From positions 1-64,000 of the IMG/VR virus record IMGVR_UViG_3300044653_000098: a stretch of 64,000 bases of DNA; one strand, written 5' to 3'. The notes beneath the pieces are model-generated. The model worked only from the letters and a program-made list of their open reading frames with translations. It had not been told where the DNA came from and did not search any database. The DNA is from a virus. Every line of letters begins with the position of its first letter. Position 1 is the stretch's first letter. Below, piece by piece: positions 2,678 to 61,773 of this stretch. A program made the position numbers and the translations under genes.

Positions 2678-4652
2678 AGTTCAGCCGGTCCTGTGCTGCT
2701 GCTTCGAGGCCGAGCCTCCCGGCACCTCGCTGGCCGCAGGTGGCGGGTTCTATGAGAGCCTCGGAACCTCCGATGGCGCACAGTTCGACGTGGTGTCCGC
2801 CGCGGGCGGCGCCATCACCTACGACAGCACCTACGCCTACACGGGCACCCAGTCCTGCAAGATCGTCACCACGTCGAATGCGTCCACGTACTTCTCGTGG
2901 AACGCCAGCGGGCTGCTGATCACCCCTGCTGTCCAGACCTGGTTCCGGATCTTCGTCTTCCAGACGGCGTGGCCGTCAGCGACGCGCCCGCTGTTCGGGT
3001 TCTACACCAGCGGCACCCGCAACGCTGACGTGATCCTGCACACCAACGGCACCCTCTCGGTCCGGGACACCAACGGCAGCACGATCGTCACCACCACGAA
3101 CACGGTGCCCAACGGCTCCTGGTACCGGCTGGAGGGGTACTGCACCTCCAATGCCTCCACCGGTCAGGTCGAGCTGAAGCTGTTTGATAGCCCGTCCAGT
3201 GCCACGCCGACCGAGACCCAGACCTCGGCCGCGACGCAGAACACCCTCGGCGGGGCCATCGGTGAGACCCGGTTCGGGATCGCCAATGCCGCGGGCTCCG
3301 GCCACACATTCTGGATAGATGACCCGGCGTGCTCCACCTCCGGCTACATCGGCCCGGTACCCGCGCAGGTGTTCCACATGGTTTGCGGCGCACCTACCGA
3401 TGCCAGTTTCAGTGTCATTGCCAAGCCGGTCGGCGGCACCAGCCTGCGGCTGAAGGTCGCCACCAACGAAGCCCTGACCAGCGGTGTGTTCTACGAGCCC
3501 GCGCAGACGCCGGACCAGTACGGTTACGTCTCCTACCAGGTAAGCGGCCTGTCCCCGTCGGCCACCTACTACTGCCAGCTGGCCGACACCCCGCCCGGCG
3601 GCACCGAAGTGCTGTCCGGGCCGGCGGGGCAGTGCATGACCCTGCCGGTGCCCGGCGCGATCACCTCCTGCACCGTGGCGTTCGCGTCGTGCATCGACAC
3701 GGGAGACACCGGGGGCAGCCCTACCGCGGCGATCAGCGACTGGATCAGCTGGGATGCGGACCTGAACGTCTTCCTGGGTGACTACGGGTATTTCGATACC
3801 ACTGACACCACCGTCAGCGGATGGCTCGGCTATATCGAGTACCAGTCGATGTACTACTCCCTGCTCGCCCTGACCAGCACTGCGTGGGGTTTCTACGTCC
3901 GCTCCGACCACGACTCCACCACGGCCGGCGGCGACTCGGACAACACCTGGACCGCGGCCAACCTGCTGGCGTGCCAGGAAGCGTTCCCGCAGGCTCCGCT
4001 GGCCGACCCGAACTCACCCGTGCACGGCCTGTACCAGAGCTTTGTCATGGGACGGGTCCGGTTCATCCTGCTGGACCAGCGCAACACTGACCGCTCCCCG
4101 GTGGCGAACACTGACAACAGCAGCAAGACGATGCTGGGCGCGAATCAGCTTGCGTGGCTGGAGCAGCAGCTGCTCCTGCCGGAGCCCCTGAAGATTATCT
4201 GCACGGACACGTCGTGGATCGGGAACACCTCGCAGTCTTCGTGCGGGCCGGGGTGGGGCTACTACTCCACCGAGCGCCAGAGCATTATCTCGTTCATCCA
4301 GGCGAACCAGTCCAGGGTCAAGAACGTGCTGCTGTGGCATGGCGATGCTCACGGTGTGGCAGCCTGCCCGGGATGGGGCAACGCGGACGGCGGTTTCAGC
4401 GTCTACTGCGCGGCGCCCCTTCGCCAGACCTCGGGCAGCGATGCGGTCGCTGCCCTGCAGGCTTTCCCCGCCTGGTACAACAACAACTCGGGGACCTGCC
4501 GCTTCTACGGCCGGGTCACTATCACCGACAGCGGGCAGACGATCTCTGTCAGTTTCCAGGGCTGGGACGCCGTCAGCCAGGTCACCCAGATCACCCAGAC
4601 CGATGTGTTCAACGTGGCCTGCGGATTCCGGCCGCTGGCTGGAATCCTGTGA
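2667..4652 (+). CDS. beta-sandwich (LamG-like) + FN3-like + PhoD-like alkaline phosphatase/phosphodiesterase domain protein
   Basis: PhoD-family motifs in order: 'VAFASC', 'FLGDYGYFD', 'SDHD', 'FILLDQR', 'KTMLGANQLAWL', 'WGYYSTERQ', 'LWHGDAH'. Confidence 0.75.
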   Translation: MAAEVQPVLCCCFEAEPPGTSLAAGGGFYESLGTSDGAQFDVVSAAGGAITYDSTYAYTGTQSCKIVTTSNASTYFSWNASGLLITPAVQTWFRIFVFQTAWPSATRPLFGFYTSGTRNADVILHTNGTLSVRDTNGSTIVTTTNTVPNGSWYRLEGYCTSNASTGQVELKLFDSPSSATPTETQTSAATQNTLGGAIGETRFGIANAAGSGHTFWIDDPACSTSGYIGPVPAQVFHMVCGAPTDASFSVIAKPVGGTSLRLKVATNEALTSGVFYEPAQTPDQYGYVSYQVSGLSPSATYYCQLADTPPGGTEVLSGPAGQCMTLPVPGAITSCTVAFASCIDTGDTGGSPTAAISDWISWDADLNVFLGDYGYFDTTDTTVSGWLGYIEYQSMYYSLLALTSTAWGFYVRSDHDSTTAGGDSDNTWTAANLLACQEAFPQAPLADPNSPVHGLYQSFVMGRVRFILLDQRNTDRSPVANTDNSSKTMLGANQLAWLEQQLLLPEPLKIICTDTSWIGNTSQSSCGPGWGYYSTERQSIISFIQANQSRVKNVLLWHGDAHGVAACPGWGNADGGFSVYCAAPLRQTSGSDAVAALQAFPAWYNNNSGTCRFYGRVTITDSGQTISVSFQGWDAVSQVTQITQTDVFNVACGFRPLAGIL

Positions 4653-20039: not shown

Positions 20040-20885
20040 ATGGAGGCTTCGGTGGCCAACCCGAACCATGTCCCGGGCAAGACGGGGCTGCTCCCGCGGG
20101 ACACCGGCAAGGCCATGCTGGTGGTGGAGCACTACGTCGCGGCCGGGGGCCTGACCGCGGTGCCGCCCGCTACCGACGTCGACCGCGCGACCAGGGTCAG
20201 CGACTGGCCCATGTACTGCAACGGCCCCGACCCCGCGAACGAGAGCGCCTGCCCCGGATCGCCTGATGGCTGCGGGGACTGCTTCTGGGCAGCGTGCGGG
20301 CACGAGATCACTGCGTTTACCGCTTACGCGGGCGCTGCCCCGGTCGTGGTCCCGCCCATCTCGGTGATCCGTGGCTACAGCTCGACGGGCTACAGCCCGC
20401 AGACCGGAGAGAACGACAACGGCACCGAGCCATCGCAGGGGCTGGCGTTCATGCGCTCGACCGGTCTGCTCGACTCGGCTGGCCGCGCGCACAAGTACGA
20501 GGCGTACGCCGCCTTCCGTGACCCCACCGACGAGGAGCTGCTGGCCCAGGTGCTGAACACCTTCGGCACCGTGCTGCTCGCCGTCGAGCTGGACCAGGCC
20601 CAGGAGGACCAGTTCGGCAACGGCCAGCCGTGGACCTACGTGGCTGGCAGCCAGGATCTCGGCGGGCACATGATCTGCCTGCAGCGCCGGGCGCCCGCAA
20701 GCCAGCTGGACATCTACAAGCCGGTGACCTGGGGCGCGCTGTGGGAAGCGAACCGCGCCTTCATCCACAACCAGGTCATCGACGCGTACGCCGTCGTGTC
20801 TGCGGACTGGATCGCCGCGAACGGCACGACCATTGAGGGTCTTGACCTTCAGCAGCTGCTCGCGGACATGCCAGAGGTGGGCTGA
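20040..20885 (+). CDS. papain-like cysteine peptidase, probable endolysin
   Basis: 'GDCFWAA', 'DNGT', 'GGHMI', 'VTWG'; precedes membrane-protein genes. Confidence 0.7.
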   Translation: MEASVANPNHVPGKTGLLPRDTGKAMLVVEHYVAAGGLTAVPPATDVDRATRVSDWPMYCNGPDPANESACPGSPDGCGDCFWAACGHEITAFTAYAGAAPVVVPPISVIRGYSSTGYSPQTGENDNGTEPSQGLAFMRSTGLLDSAGRAHKYEAYAAFRDPTDEELLAQVLNTFGTVLLAVELDQAQEDQFGNGQPWTYVAGSQDLGGHMICLQRRAPASQLDIYKPVTWGALWEANRAFIHNQVIDAYAVVSADWIAANGTTIEGLDLQQLLADMPEVG

Positions 20886-20890
20886 GTCCG

Positions 20891-21256
20891 GTGCACAGCG
20901 GCGGAGAGCGCCCGATCCGGCTGCTGCCGGAGCGCGGATCACCTGGCCGGGCCCTGGCCCTGACGATTATCTGCGTGCTGGGCGCGGTGCTTCTGGTGGC
21001 CGGGTACTTCACCTGGAGCACCAACACCACCAACGGCCAGCTGGTCTCGGTCAACCAGAAGCTGCGGGCGCAGCAGGCAGAGTCTCAGAAAGCGGGACTG
21101 CTGATCGAGAAGGCGATCTGCCTGGATATGGGTACGATGGCCGCCATCCCGCCGCCTGCGGGAGCGGGCCCCTCGAACCCGAGCCGGACCTACGAGCAGG
21201 CAGAGCACCGGGCGTGGAAAGGGCTGTACGACGGCCTCAGGTGCGGGAAGACGTGA
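20891..21256 (+). CDS. membrane protein (lysis cassette)
   Basis: N-terminal TM segment. Confidence 0.55.
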   Translation: MHSGGERPIRLLPERGSPGRALALTIICVLGAVLLVAGYFTWSTNTTNGQLVSVNQKLRAQQAESQKAGLLIEKAICLDMGTMAAIPPPAGAGPSNPSRTYEQAEHRAWKGLYDGLRCGKT

Positions 21257-21271
21257 CAGGGGAATGTTCAG

Positions 21272-21664
21272 ATGTCCGGGTCTAGCCTGGTCCCGCTCTA
21301 TTACCTTTCGGGTATAGGTGTGGCTGTAGGCGGAGGCGTGGCCGGCGTGCGCAGTTATCTCGGCAGGCAGCGCGAGAAGTGGGTGCAAGAGGGCGCCAAG
21401 GAGGCGGACCTCGCCAAGGTGCTGGAAGCTAACAGCAAGGTCGGGGCCAGCAACACGGCGGCTATCGACCGTATGTCTGATGAGCTGCGCCGGTTTGGTG
21501 AGGGCCTGAAGGAGTCCACGGCAGAGACCCAGCGCCGGCTGGATGCGGTCGACCGGCGGTTCGAGACGGCTGAGCAGCGGGCGCAGGCGATAGAGGATGC
21601 GCTGTGGGGACAGCGCGGTACTCTCCCGGACCGCGGTCTCCGTGGGCAGCCGAACCAGCCATAG
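21272..21664 (+). CDS. holin-like TM + coiled-coil protein
   Basis: N-terminal TM then coiled coil; lies in the lysis cassette. Confidence 0.55.
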   Translation: MSGSSLVPLYYLSGIGVAVGGGVAGVRSYLGRQREKWVQEGAKEADLAKVLEANSKVGASNTAAIDRMSDELRRFGEGLKESTAETQRRLDAVDRRFETAEQRAQAIEDALWGQRGTLPDRGLRGQPNQP

Positions 21665-21672
21665 GGGGAGAA

Positions 21673-21900
21673 GTGGGCAGGCATCCTGGGTTCATCGCCC
21701 TCGTCTCCGTGGTGACTGCCGTCCTGCTGACGGTCGGGCTTGTCTGGTGGATCGTGACCAGCACGAAAGAGTCGGTGTGCCGGCCGGTGCTCCGGCTGGT
21801 GGAGAAACCCGAGCCCACCGGGCTGACGCACTCCCAGCTCCAGTCGTTTGAGTACAACCACAAGACCTATGTGCAGCTGTACGCGAGCCTGGGCTGCTGA
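21673..21900 (+). CDS. membrane protein (lysis cassette)
   Basis: SD GGAG before GTG; TM segment; two Cys. Confidence 0.55.
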   Translation: MGRHPGFIALVSVVTAVLLTVGLVWWIVTSTKESVCRPVLRLVEKPEPTGLTHSQLQSFEYNHKTYVQLYASLGC

Positions 21901-21918
21901 CATACGCTCCTGATTAAG

Positions 21919-21958
21919 AGGGCCCGGCTGTTCTCCCCACCCTGCAGCCGGGCCCTTT
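21919..21958 (+). terminator. intrinsic terminator-like hairpin
   Basis: AGGGCCCGGCTG / CAGCCGGGCCCT followed by TT. Confidence 0.7.
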
Positions 21959-22001
21959 GCTGTGCGCAGCCGATATATAGACTCGTGTCAACTAACCTAA
22001 A

Positions 22002-22009
22002 GCCGATAA
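22002..22009 (+). promoter_or_regulatory. putative late promoter -10 (GCCGATAA)
   Basis: Exact sigma28-family -10 consensus in an intergenic gap; second variant GCCGATAT at 21969. Confidence 0.5.
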
Positions 22010-22015
22010 GTGCAG

Positions 22016-22200
22016 GTAGGATACCCAGTCGCTACTTCCGGCGCGACGATGCTTCTGCTCCCTAGAGGGACGATGTCTCTAGAGGTTCTAGAGGTCTAGC
22101 CGGGAGGCCGGGTATGAGTGCCACGGTGGCGCTGGTGTTCGCTGGTATTCCAGCGTGTGATGTTGCACTGAAGTGGTTTCAGGAGTGGAAGCATCGGCAT
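22016..22200 (+). ncRNA. candidate structured ncRNA (multibranch, unknown family)
   Basis: 15-bp closing stem 22047-22061/22182-22196 with two G.U pairs enclosing 6-7 short hairpins; no plausible ORF. Confidence 0.55.
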
Positions 22201-22296
22201 AGACGTATAAAGTGATGGAAGACGCGGGCCTGATCACCTGCGCCGGAGGGCCGGGCCTGCTCCGGCCCTCCACCTTCAAGCAGGCTGGAGGATGCG

Positions 22297-22850
22297 ATGA
22301 CAGCACCCTTGAATGTGCAAGGCGAGCGGTTCGGTCGGCTGGTAGTGGTCCGGGACGGCCCCAAGCGGAATGTCACGGAGAAGCGCCCTGAGGGCGTACG
22401 CACTGCGATCTGTGAATGCGACTGCGGGTCAGTAACTACCGTGCTTCTCAACAATCTGACCCGAGGCAAGGTCACGTCTTGTGGCTGTGCTCGGCGTGAG
22501 CGCACAGGTGAGTGGAACCGTGAGGCCAAGGTGGTGATGGGCTGAAGCACCATCCGCTCTACGCGACGTGGACCTCCATGATTCATCGCTGTGAGGACCC
22601 CAAGGTTGACAACTACAAGCATTACGGTGGCCGGGGGATCCGGGTGTGCGATCGGTGGCACGACGTCAGTGTGTTTATCTCGGACATCGAGCGCTGGCTT
22701 GGCCCGCGGCCGCCGGGTATGACCTTGGATCGCATTCTCAATGACCATGATTACCGGCTGGACAACGTCCGCTGGGCGACGTGGGTACAGCAGCGCGCGA
22801 ACCAGCGTCCCGGTGCTGGCTGGTGGGGTCCGCATACACGCGAGAGCTAG
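22297..22850 (+). pseudogene. HNH homing endonuclease split by a 1-nt frameshift near 22537
   Basis: 'GERFGRLVV...CECDCG...TSCGC' in one frame; 'HPLYATWTSMIHRC...YGGRGIRVCDRW...TLDRI.ND..Y...NVRWAT..QQ..N' in the -1 frame. Confidence 0.8.
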
Positions 22851-22857
22851 CCGATAA
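22850..22857 (+). promoter_or_regulatory. putative late promoter -10 (GCCGATAA) for the major tail gene
   Basis: Starts on the last base of the upstream stop codon, 43 nt before the ATG. Confidence 0.55.
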
Positions 22858-22900
22858 GCCCCTGTGACGGGAAGAGGACCCGACCACAGGGAGTAACCGC

Positions 22901-23581
22901 ATGGCTACGCAATATTTCGAGGGCTTCTCGTTGAGCCACGCGGCGATCTTGGACGGGCTAAACGGGGCGGAAGGGCAGACCATCTACGGTGTGCGCAACG
23001 GCACGCTGAGCACGGACAACGGGAACTTCGAGAACACTGGCGACAACGTCGTGCTGTCGGAGTGGTTCTGGATCAACTTCGCGAACCTGACCATTGAGTC
23101 CGGGTTCATCCCGTTCCCGACCATCGCGGACATCACCGGCCTGAGCACGGTGTCCAACGGCGTGACGGTCACCTCCGGCGTCGACTCCTCGGGCACCGCC
23201 CCGAACGACTACTACGCGATCCCGCTGTGGACGCTGAACTCGATGAACACCGTGACCAAGCCGGTGGGCCTGCGAGTGCCGTCCAAGGACAATGCGGGCA
23301 ACATTCGCACACTGGACTTTGTGCTCTATAGGGTGCAATTCCAGCCATTTAACTTCACGGGCCCGAGCTACAAGAATGGCCTGACCACGTCGATTGCCGG
23401 CCGCGCGCTGTTCTCGACCTTTAACGAGGTTGGGCTGGCCCTGCCGGTGTCCTACGGCGGTCCGGGTTTCGAGCCGGGCACCACCACCCAGGCGGGCATG
23501 AGCATCGGCCGCCTGATCTCCAGCCCGGGATCGCTGTCGGGCTCCTTCACCACCGAGCCGTTCCAGAACCCAGCGATCTAG
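22901..23581 (+). CDS. major tail protein
   Basis: 226 aa; upstream of the chaperones and tape measure; beta-rich. Confidence 0.7.
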   Translation: MATQYFEGFSLSHAAILDGLNGAEGQTIYGVRNGTLSTDNGNFENTGDNVVLSEWFWINFANLTIESGFIPFPTIADITGLSTVSNGVTVTSGVDSSGTAPNDYYAIPLWTLNSMNTVTKPVGLRVPSKDNAGNIRTLDFVLYRVQFQPFNFTGPSYKNGLTTSIAGRALFSTFNEVGLALPVSYGGPGFEPGTTTQAGMSIGRLISSPGSLSGSFTTEPFQNPAI

Positions 23582-23584
23582 CCC

Positions 23585-23950
23585 ATGGCGTACTGGACTC
23601 CGCCGTTCCGGGACAGCAAGCATGCGCCCATGGCCGGGACGGCGGGGTTCTGCTACGCAGACAACCAGCTGTGTGGCGGGGAGGACACTGCCGGGCAGGC
23701 GATCGTCTGCCTATGCTGCCAGGCAGCGGCTGCGACTTCCCCCGCAGTTCCGTCACCCGCTGGCTCCCCGGATGTCCCCATCGGGGAGCCAGCTCAGCCC
23801 TCCCCCGCCCAGCCTGTGCTCACCGACCAGCCGCAGACCGCGGGCGAGCAGAGCGTGCAGCAGGCCGGCCAGGAAGGCATGGCCGAGCCCGGCTCTGACG
23901 CCCTTGCTGACCCCGCGTGGCCGAACCGGCCGCCAGAGGTCCCGGTCTAG
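23585..23950 (+). CDS. hypothetical protein (Cys N-terminus, Pro-rich C-terminus)
   Basis: Fills the gap between the tail gene and the chaperone. Confidence 0.5.
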   Translation: MAYWTPPFRDSKHAPMAGTAGFCYADNQLCGGEDTAGQAIVCLCCQAAAATSPAVPSPAGSPDVPIGEPAQPSPAQPVLTDQPQTAGEQSVQQAGQEGMAEPGSDALADPAWPNRPPEVPV

Positions 23951-51574: not shown

Positions 51575-52516
51575 ATGGAAACCTACACGTTCGCCGACCC
51601 TGAGCTGTCCCCTCTGCCCATGAAGTGGGTCTGGGACGGTTACATCCCGCGGTACTGCATGACGGAGGGGTACGGCGAGGGCGGGACGATGAAGGGCCTC
51701 GGCATTCAGAGCATCATCGCCCTGATCACCCTCGGTGCGGACATGCCGGACGGCAGCCTCAACGGGTTCGGTGGTCCGCGCACCGTGATCAGCATCACGG
51801 GCGAGGATCTGCTGCGGCAGGGCATGGCCTGGCGCTACCGCGCGGCCGGCGCCGACACCCGCAATATCGTGGATCTCAGCAAGGACGAGAACGGCCGGCC
51901 CTTCAAGCTGAACGACGCGGGGCTCGCGCGCATCCGCGAGGAGATCGCCAAGATCAACTCTCACGAGGGCAAGTACCGGCATATGCCGGACTACGGCTTC
52001 CTGTACCTCGACCCCATGATGAGCATCGCGCCCCGCAGCGTCACCCAGAACACCACGTTCCGTGCGGTGCTGCTCGAACCTCTCGACGCGCTGTGCGCCG
52101 AGGAGGAGCTTGGCAAGGACGGCACGGGCTGCTTCCTCATGAACCACTCGACCAAGGACAAGAAGGTCGTGGCCGGCTCGGCCGCCGCAGTGCAGGGCCC
52201 GCGCATGGTTCTCGGGTTCCGCCAGAGCGACCGCAACCCGCTGTGGCGTGAGCTGTACCGGTACAAGACCAATATCACCGAGAACACCCCGGCTCCCGTG
52301 CCGTACATGGGGGAGGGCAAGGACACCAGTATCCGCGTGCGGTGGATGACGGACTCCTGGGAGCAGCGCCGCAGCGGGTCCGGTGTCCTGAGCCGGTACG
52401 GCTCGCGCGCCTCGGAGGCCATGGCTCCCGCGCCAGTCCCGGCCCCGTACGCGGCGCCCGTTCCGCAGCCGGCCAGCGTTGGCGAGATGTGGAAGAATCT
52501 CCAGTCCAGCATGTGA
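51575..52516 (+). CDS. AAA_25/RepA-like (RecA-fold) ATPase/helicase domain protein
   Basis: 'KWVWDGYIP', Walker A-like 'GEGGTMKG', 'ITGED', Walker B 'LYLDP', 'NHSTK', 'AGSAA...PR'. Confidence 0.7.
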   Translation: METYTFADPELSPLPMKWVWDGYIPRYCMTEGYGEGGTMKGLGIQSIIALITLGADMPDGSLNGFGGPRTVISITGEDLLRQGMAWRYRAAGADTRNIVDLSKDENGRPFKLNDAGLARIREEIAKINSHEGKYRHMPDYGFLYLDPMMSIAPRSVTQNTTFRAVLLEPLDALCAEEELGKDGTGCFLMNHSTKDKKVVAGSAAAVQGPRMVLGFRQSDRNPLWRELYRYKTNITENTPAPVPYMGEGKDTSIRVRWMTDSWEQRRSGSGVLSRYGSRASEAMAPAPVPAPYAAPVPQPASVGEMWKNLQSSM

Positions 52517-61669: not shown

Positions 61670-61773
61670 GCCTCCGTTTGGTGGGCTTGCTTACAGGTCA
61701 ATCCTCGCACGGACGGTAGACACGTGTCAACCTCTCGTGCTAGTCTGATCTCATCAGCCCACCAAACGGAGGC
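61670..61773. promoter_or_regulatory. dyad copy 12 (61715-61732); bidirectional promoter with the leader motif on both sides
   Basis: Rightward TAGACA-18-TAGTCT; leftward TTGACA-18-GAGGAT; AGCCCACCAAACGGAGGC at 61756 (+) and 61670-61687 (-). Confidence 0.8.

Follow-up and report, generated by a model that had tools for sequence, protein, structure and literature searches.

The folded element described here, a 150-nt ring of short hairpins closed by a long stem, is most likely the untranslated leader of a mobile gene rather than a new RNA family, since it is found in one phage only and lies directly before a broken homing-endonuclease gene. With moderate confidence, it is assigned as the structured 5' leader of a late transcript of that HNH endonuclease, which is the next gene after the fold and was overlooked in the original prediction. 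That prediction had proposed an independently transcribed phage non-coding RNA acting as a protein sponge or decoy, an antitoxin mimic or an assembly RNA. The endonuclease leader is the simpler explanation. No T-tailed terminator separates the fold from the HNH gene, no homologue of the fold was detected, and none of the roles proposed for the free RNA gained backing from the present analysis.

The window analysed comprises the first 64 kb (64,000 nucleotides) of a complete 141.7-kb virus record derived from soil metagenomes. The genome has a GC content of 67%, and in its genes it corresponds to a large actinophage-like siphovirus. The folded element is encountered inside a 396-nt gap (21901-22296) that is preceded by a lysis-type block, consisting of a 281-aa ORF (20040-20885) with phrog_19005, a function-unknown family, as its sole match, two small ORFs, and a membrane-protein-like 98-aa ORF that ends at 21900. 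A holin-family gene (phrog_9752; genome 74608-74949, L203 609-950) with its own GCCGATAA box is located 52 kb from this endolysin-like gene and the small membrane-like ORFs (window 20040-21900). On the other side of the endonuclease lies the gene of the major tail protein, which shares 45% identity with gp33 of Microbacterium phage Magritte and is followed by the tail-chaperone gene and that of a tape-measure protein of 2433 aa. Three related loci (L037, L038, and L039) carry two tandem major tail protein genes (e.g., 4001-4588 and 4624-5211 in L038).

Contigs identical to the element region were recovered from other soil runs and assemblies, which shows that the sequence of the element is not an assembly artefact; the copies of the element in other samples were identical ones only. 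The pieces recovered from three other soil DNA runs were all identical, and neither a variant nor a junction skipping the cassette was present among them. The sole RNA run in which the phage was detected covers parts of the major tail gene only (22983-23086 and 23368-23612). A 245-nt contig of soil metatranscriptome X24 is identical to positions 23368-23612 of this gene, for which DNA carry-over is possible. The features discussed below are collected in Table 1.

Table 1. Features between the lysis-type block and the major tail protein gene (window positions).
Feature	Position	Strand	Remark
Terminator-like hairpin	21919-21956	+	12-bp perfect stem, 14-nt loop, then TTTGCTGTG
First sigma-28-like -10 box	21969-21976	+	variant GCCGATAT
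Sigma-28-type -10 box GCCGATAA, probable late promoter	22002-22009	+	exact match
Small 5' hairpin GTCGC/GCGAC	22028-22046	+	loop CUUCCGGC
150-nt core of the fold	22047-22196	+	14-15-bp closing stem around multi-hairpin ring
CTAGAGG repeat block	22062-22099	+	four CTAG; only CTAG cluster in the 141.7-kb genome
33-codon ORF	22114-22215	+	preceded at 6 nt by GGGAGG; unlikely to be coding
GC-rich 10-bp hairpin without T-tail	22245-22271	+	between fold and endonuclease start
HNH homing endonuclease, N-terminal zinc-finger part	22297-22545	+	82 aa, ended by frameshift
HNH homing endonuclease, C-terminal catalytic part	22524-22850	+	other frame; ATG-bounded ORF 22578-22850
Next GCCGATAA box	22850-22857	+	overlaps endonuclease stop codon; 51 nt before major tail start
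Major tail protein gene	22901-23581	+	

The architecture of the element was largely as originally described, and on rechecking against the sequence every coordinate given for it was correct. The 15-nt arms of the closing stem (22047-22061 and 22182-22196) form 13 Watson-Crick and two G.U pairs, and 13 of the 14 pairs of the stem in the minimum free energy (MFE) structure have a pair probability of about 1.0. The inner hairpins at 22100-11, 22117-33, 22140-55, 22156-67, and 22168-82 were recovered in the MFE fold and most of them also in the centroid fold, those at 22100-11, 22117-33, 22140-55, and 22168-82 being common to both. The sequences of the proposed CTAG hairpins (22062-22099) are in place, but these hairpins face competing pairings and reach pair probabilities of only 0.2-0.25, because the CTAGAGG motif is repeated and leaves this part of the structure ambiguous. 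The complementarity underlying a suggested 6-nt pseudoknot (ATACCC with GGGTAT) exists, but at a level expected by chance. The small hairpin preceding the stem (22028-32 paired with 22042-46) is present, and its loop is an alternative pairing partner of the ribosome-binding site of the endonuclease. The fold was further said to follow a terminator, and a terminator-like hairpin (21919-30 paired with 21945-56) does lie upstream of it, on the 3' side of the gene encoding the membrane protein of the lysis module. The consensus promoter and terminator scanner, which is built for sigma-70 boxes and for hairpin loops between 3 and 8 nt, yielded nothing useful here and missed this hairpin because its loop exceeds 8 nt.

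The fold begins about 7 nt downstream of the sequence GCCGATAA, which is the full -10 consensus of sigma-28 (FliA/SigD/WhiG) promoters. The GCCGA core of WhiG/FliA -10 elements has been described (PMC13595943). There are five copies of GCCGATAA in the genome, all on the + strand (22002 and 22850 in the window; genome positions 74546, 136856, and 138458), and variant boxes occur at window positions 21969 and 23950. The scaffold-like gene, the major tail gene, and the holin gene each have a copy 42-62 nt upstream of their starts, and the major head (capsid) gene has one at a distance of about 200 nt; the tail-chaperone gene is preceded at 48 nt by a variant, GCCGATAG. Moreover, about 60 loci of related phages have CCGATTA or CCGATA conserved at approximately 40-75 nt before their major tail gene. 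Outside the window, the phage encodes a putative sigma factor of its own (227-aa ORF; genome 80063-80746, L236 1324-2007) that matches TIGR02479 (FliA_WhiG) over its full length with an E-value of 4.5e-21, a score below the curated cut-off (75.6 versus 189.6 bits). Its best match among solved structures is FliA of E. coli (6pmi, E 2.7e-11). By sequence, this protein appears to be a divergent FliA/WhiG-like factor. Inspection by eye of the positions 15-16 nt upstream of the boxes at 22002, 21969, and 22850 revealed no sigma-28 -35 element (TAAA or xT(C/A)Ax). The match to the consensus, the phage sigma factor and the placement of the boxes at virion and holin genes make the box at 22002 a probable late promoter, as had been suspected, and render a late transcript start predicted near 22016-22018 plausible.

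The gene that follows the fold on the same strand encodes an HNH homing endonuclease, the only one of its type in the genome. Its start codon lies 100 nt downstream of the fold, which itself begins 7-40 nt 3' of GCCGATAA. The two endonuclease ORFs match consecutive parts of phrog_374 (positions 191-256 and 279-354) and align, in two different frames, to residues 4-81 and 81-171 of the intact 197-aa HNH protein of the nearest relative (L003), which places a frameshift near 22525-22545. The identical endonuclease sequence, frameshift included, recurs in independent contigs of other soil samples, which implies that the gene either is a real pseudogene or is in need of frameshifting for its expression. 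Between the fold and the HNH start codon no T-tailed terminator was found, either by reading of the sequence or by the consensus scanner. The GC-rich hairpin in this interval is followed by ACCTTCAAGC, whereas the other terminators of the genome have T-runs. The GGAGG of the endonuclease (22287-91) is 90% paired in the prediction, with positions 22035-42 pairing with 22284-91 at a probability of about 0.6; this predicted burial of the ribosome-binding site is not significant, as 12 of 100 shuffled leaders gave equally low values.

Comparison with related phages indicates that the cassette is specific to this lineage. In the nearest relative, the flanks are 88% and 94% identical, but the segment that separates the 98-aa ORF from the promoter of the major tail gene differs and consists of a 59-aa ORF and the intact HNH gene (L003 3321-3911), which is only 63% and 49% identical; no trace of the fold was found there. 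The 59-aa ORF (L003 3110-3289), which takes the place of the folded element, has a GGAG box and a hydrophobic C-terminus and bears no similarity to the element. HNH genes of this type occur sporadically among the 64 related loci and are absent from most of them. They are situated just before the major tail promoter in six loci (L003, L004, L014, L028, L054, and L057) and just before the endolysin-like gene in others (L012, L025, L026, L028, L040-L046, L062, and L065). Several of the HNH genes at these two hot spots carry short promoter-like leaders of their own. The leaders of the HNH genes in relatives measure 30-80 nt, apart from a single one that reaches about 100 nt or longer, and they do not resemble the fold. 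A fold of this kind is thus not needed for this type of endonuclease.

The composition of the gap also sets the segment apart from its surroundings. It contains 51-60% GC, compared with 67% for the genome, and lacks codon-position periodicity, in agreement with its original description as non-coding. The GC content at third codon positions (GC3) of the endonuclease is 0.67-0.75 versus 0.76-0.90 in the neighbouring genes. Furthermore, CTAG is strongly depleted in the genome (125 copies versus 435 expected from base composition), and both TCTAGA sites of the genome and three of its four CTAGAGG copies fall within the 38 bp at 22062-22099. As a GC-poor, CTAG-rich segment of a CTAG-depleted genome that is joined to a divergent endonuclease, the promoter-leader-endonuclease unit has, in its sequence, the look of a recent import. 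The presence of the 10-bp AGCCGATAAG at both ends of this 848-bp unit was considered as a target-site duplication and rejected, because the same 10-mer is the promoter box at all five sites.

Taken together, the proposed sequence of events would start with a late transcript that initiates at the sigma-28-type promoter at 22002 and presumably runs into the free-standing HNH endonuclease gene, such that the interval 22016-22296 would be a highly folded 5' untranslated region of approximately 280 nt. Promoter, leader and endonuclease would then constitute a lineage-specific, recently imported cassette that was placed downstream of the lysis genes and ahead of the major tail promoter. The stability of the fold relative to shuffled and genomic sequence and its + strand bias, both detailed below, favour this reading. 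The fold would act in cis, in the manner of the hairpins of T4-type homing endonucleases, either by holding down translation of the endonuclease or by protecting the 5' end of the mRNA; a role as 5' stabiliser is as possible as translational repression. The frameshift in the endonuclease indicates that the cassette is decaying, and since the gene is broken, a regulatory role of the fold may be a relic.

The decay of the cassette also invites the reading, which we consider doubtful, that the fold is a functionless by-product, i.e., DNA that was imported or scrambled and belongs to a mobile cassette in decay. The segment may be transcribed, but its palindromes would have arisen by local duplication or inversion and the fold would not be under selection. 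Its status as a singleton without conservation, the frameshift in the endonuclease, the foreign composition with the unique CTAG cluster, and the short tandem repeats in the element (9-10 nt only, in 2-2.6 copies) all fit such an origin, and the folding statistics speak on both sides. The expectation that the element folds better than shuffled sequence held strongly for the 150-nt core and modestly for the 185-nt span first proposed. Against dinucleotide shuffles, the core reached a z-score of -5.40 on the + strand and an equally strong -5.82 on the - strand, with 0 of 200 shuffles as stable in either case, while the 185-nt span reached -2.09 on + and -3.79 on -. Such symmetry between the strands is expected for DNA-level inverted repeats. 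Moreover, 15-bp stems are not rare in this genome (13 such loci versus 2.7 expected from shuffles), and a stem of this length would thus arise by chance about 2.7 times per genome.

Other measures separate the strands and argue against a mere by-product. The folding energy of the core is -69.4 kcal/mol on the + strand versus -53.6 on the - strand, and the MFE structure includes seven G.U pairs on + and none on -, which bears out the earlier suggestion that wobble pairs favour the + strand and places all seven of them on the strand that would be transcribed. In a genome scan of GC-corrected MFE in 150-nt windows, the + strand core ranked 6th of 2831 (z -3.4), a rank that is flattered by a window grid starting on the stem, whereas the - strand core ranked only about 340th (z -1.1). 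In addition, the eight to nine separate helices within 150 nt exceed what one duplication or inversion would create. Long folds are not a general property of the late leaders of this phage, as is apparent from the major head gene, whose 200-nt leader lies behind the same promoter box and is unstructured (z -0.19). Elsewhere in the genome, perfect stems of at least 15 bp together with very stable local folds occur at genome 64653-64762 and window 61670-61773, as well as at genome 127883-127971, 130349-130597, and 71321-71419, and at window 52246-52408. The most stable fold of the genome on both strands is that at genome 64647-64796 (z -4.3 and -5.3).

A free-standing transcript, as originally envisaged, is less likely still. 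It would be an independent, trans-acting late small RNA of approximately 180-260 nt, for example a protein decoy or an anti-defence RNA, that starts near 22016 and has its 3' end at the closing stem or at the hairpin at 22245-71. The significance of the fold and its specificity to the + strand, the promoter-type box just 5' of it, and the lack of a coding signal in the segment would all suit such an RNA. Actinobacterial terminators can lack T-tails, and the stable 10-bp GC hairpin that follows the fold might therefore terminate transcription in an actinobacterial host, in which case the fold would be a separate RNA. However, that hairpin is without the T-tail of the other terminators in the genome, the tandem repeats typical of ToxI-like RNAs are absent, and a useful trans-acting RNA would be expected in at least the close kin of the phage, whereas neither the nearest relative nor any of the searched collections contained a homologue.

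These searches covered several scales. Neither 50,697 phage records queried by megablast and blastn, nor the 64 related phage loci and 19 loci with related HNH genes queried by blastn and nhmmer, nor five whole related genomes yielded a homologue of the fold. In IMG/VR, an exact 15-mer and an exact 17-mer gave chance matches only, those of the 17-mer being in low-GC coding repeats, and among 185,579 prokaryote genomes the exact two-arm pattern had no match and a 22-mer had two chance matches. A single-sequence covariance model was run on 501 kb comprising the phage's own genome and its relatives, and its best foreign match had an E-value of 0.18. When metagenomes were scanned with the 130-aa protein encoded upstream, one 67% relative was obtained, of which the contig ends before the site. 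In the search for the same cassette elsewhere, the best HNH relative found was only about 48% identical, and exact-protein look-ups retrieved the same strain only. No tRNA, tmRNA, SRP or ribozyme signature had been recognised in the fold at first, in agreement with the present searches: the Rfam covariance models had no match in the whole window at gathering thresholds, an Rfam search of 21400-23000 with E-values up to 10 gave three chance matches to eukaryotic or archaeal families, none of them on the fold, and ARAGORN detected neither a tRNA nor a tmRNA. The absence of an Rfam match likewise counts against the small RNA. The more specific proposal that the fold is a free-standing late RNA, made from the sigma-28-type promoter, whose ring of exposed hairpins and CUAGAGG motifs bind a host or phage protein as an anti-defence decoy, and that it was acquired too recently to be present in the sampled relatives, is improbable.

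Part of the element could instead act as DNA, the CTAGAGG / TCTAGAGGT repeats (22062-22099) just 3' of the promoter forming an operator array through which the endonuclease represses itself, as is the case for I-TevI, or to which another regulator binds. The concentration of three of the four genomic CTAGAGG copies and both TCTAGA sites in 38 bp of a genome that avoids CTAG is suggestive in this respect, and it is precisely the repeat part that is the least well defined stretch of the RNA fold; autorepression of homing endonucleases at operators near late promoters is also known (PMC2988022). The repeats, however, explain only a quarter of the element and account neither for the closing stem nor for the other hairpins, they are absent from relatives, and neither a binding protein nor a matching homing site was identified, which makes this reading very improbable.

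Least probable of all is that the hairpins are incidental to a small protein gene, namely the 33-codon ORF at 22114-22215 with its hydrophobic N-terminus and basic C-terminus: its GGGAGG box 6 nt 5' of the ATG would be in line with translation, as would the 59-aa ORF, unrelated but likewise hydrophobic at one end, that the nearest relative has in this position, but its GC3 is 0.53 versus 0.76-0.90 in the neighbouring genes, it shows no codon-position periodicity, and it spans no more than the 3' half of the fold. The original statement that the element has no ORF thus needs amendment in that an ORF exists, and stands in that a coding signature is absent. The single match of the 33-aa product among 1.8 billion representatives (E 3e-7) was to a five-fold helical-repeat protein that matches 'DLALEWFEEMKK' and was dismissed as due to chance.

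The fold is of small general importance, being a single-genome orphan that comes from an uncultured phage and precedes a broken gene. Its context is of more use, since it points to a phage-encoded FliA/WhiG-like sigma factor together with GCCGATAA boxes that precede all major late genes, and to homing endonucleases that repeatedly land beside such boxes.

Several known systems share features with the element. Like a miniature inverted-repeat transposable element (MITE), it is a 150-bp unit bounded by 15-bp imperfect inverted repeats; unlike MITEs, it is single-copy in the genome, its two-arm pattern is absent from the prokaryote genomes searched, and there is no target-site duplication at 22046/22197 (flanks GCGCGA and GCATAG). 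ToxI consists of tandem direct repeats of about 34-36 nt beside a toxin gene, whereas the repeats of the element measure 9-10 nt and no toxin gene is adjacent. The prohead (packaging) RNA of phi29, to which the earlier assembly-RNA idea corresponds, is also encoded by a phage and folds about 170 nt into several helices, but the element had no match in Rfam, which should include a prohead RNA model, is not near packaging genes, and is not conserved among relatives. Phi29-like phages are small and have a low GC content, and their prohead RNA is transcribed early. The HEARO or omega RNA of IscB is likewise a large structured non-coding RNA beside an ORF with an HNH domain; here, however, Rfam gave no match, and the protein is not a 400-500-aa RuvC-HNH nuclease such as IscB but a zinc-finger and HNH protein of about 190 aa of the phage type phrog_374. 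With sigma-28 promoters the upstream region shares an exact -10 match, the presence of a phage sigma gene and the location of boxes before virion and lysis genes, and it differs from them in that a -35 element is lacking and the phage sigma factor scores below the family cut-off.

Finally, the closest parallel to a structured endonuclease leader is provided by the T4-type homing endonucleases, of which the translation is controlled by RNA structures upstream of the genes, as described for I-TevI, I-TevII, I-TevIII, and segB of T4 and mobE of Aeh1 (PMC2988022). In these known cases a single hairpin buries the ribosome-binding site, and a late promoter inside or after the hairpin allows late transcripts to escape (PMC2988022). 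The present element resembles them as a structured RNA that immediately precedes, in the same orientation, the ORF of a phage homing endonuclease and is linked to a late promoter. In both, the endonuclease gene is a parasite that has settled between late genes essential to the phage. It differs in that a 150-nt multi-hairpin domain is located 100 nt 5' of the start codon, both boxes (21969 and 22002) lie upstream of the whole fold, which does not fit a late-promoter bypass, and burial of the ribosome-binding site is not significant. The likeness to T4-type translational control is thus one of functional analogy only. If the fold does act in cis, silencing of selfish endonucleases by RNA structure would extend from T4-type phages to high-GC soil phages, and it would do so with a different architecture, in which a multi-hairpin domain is read from a sigma-28-type late promoter.
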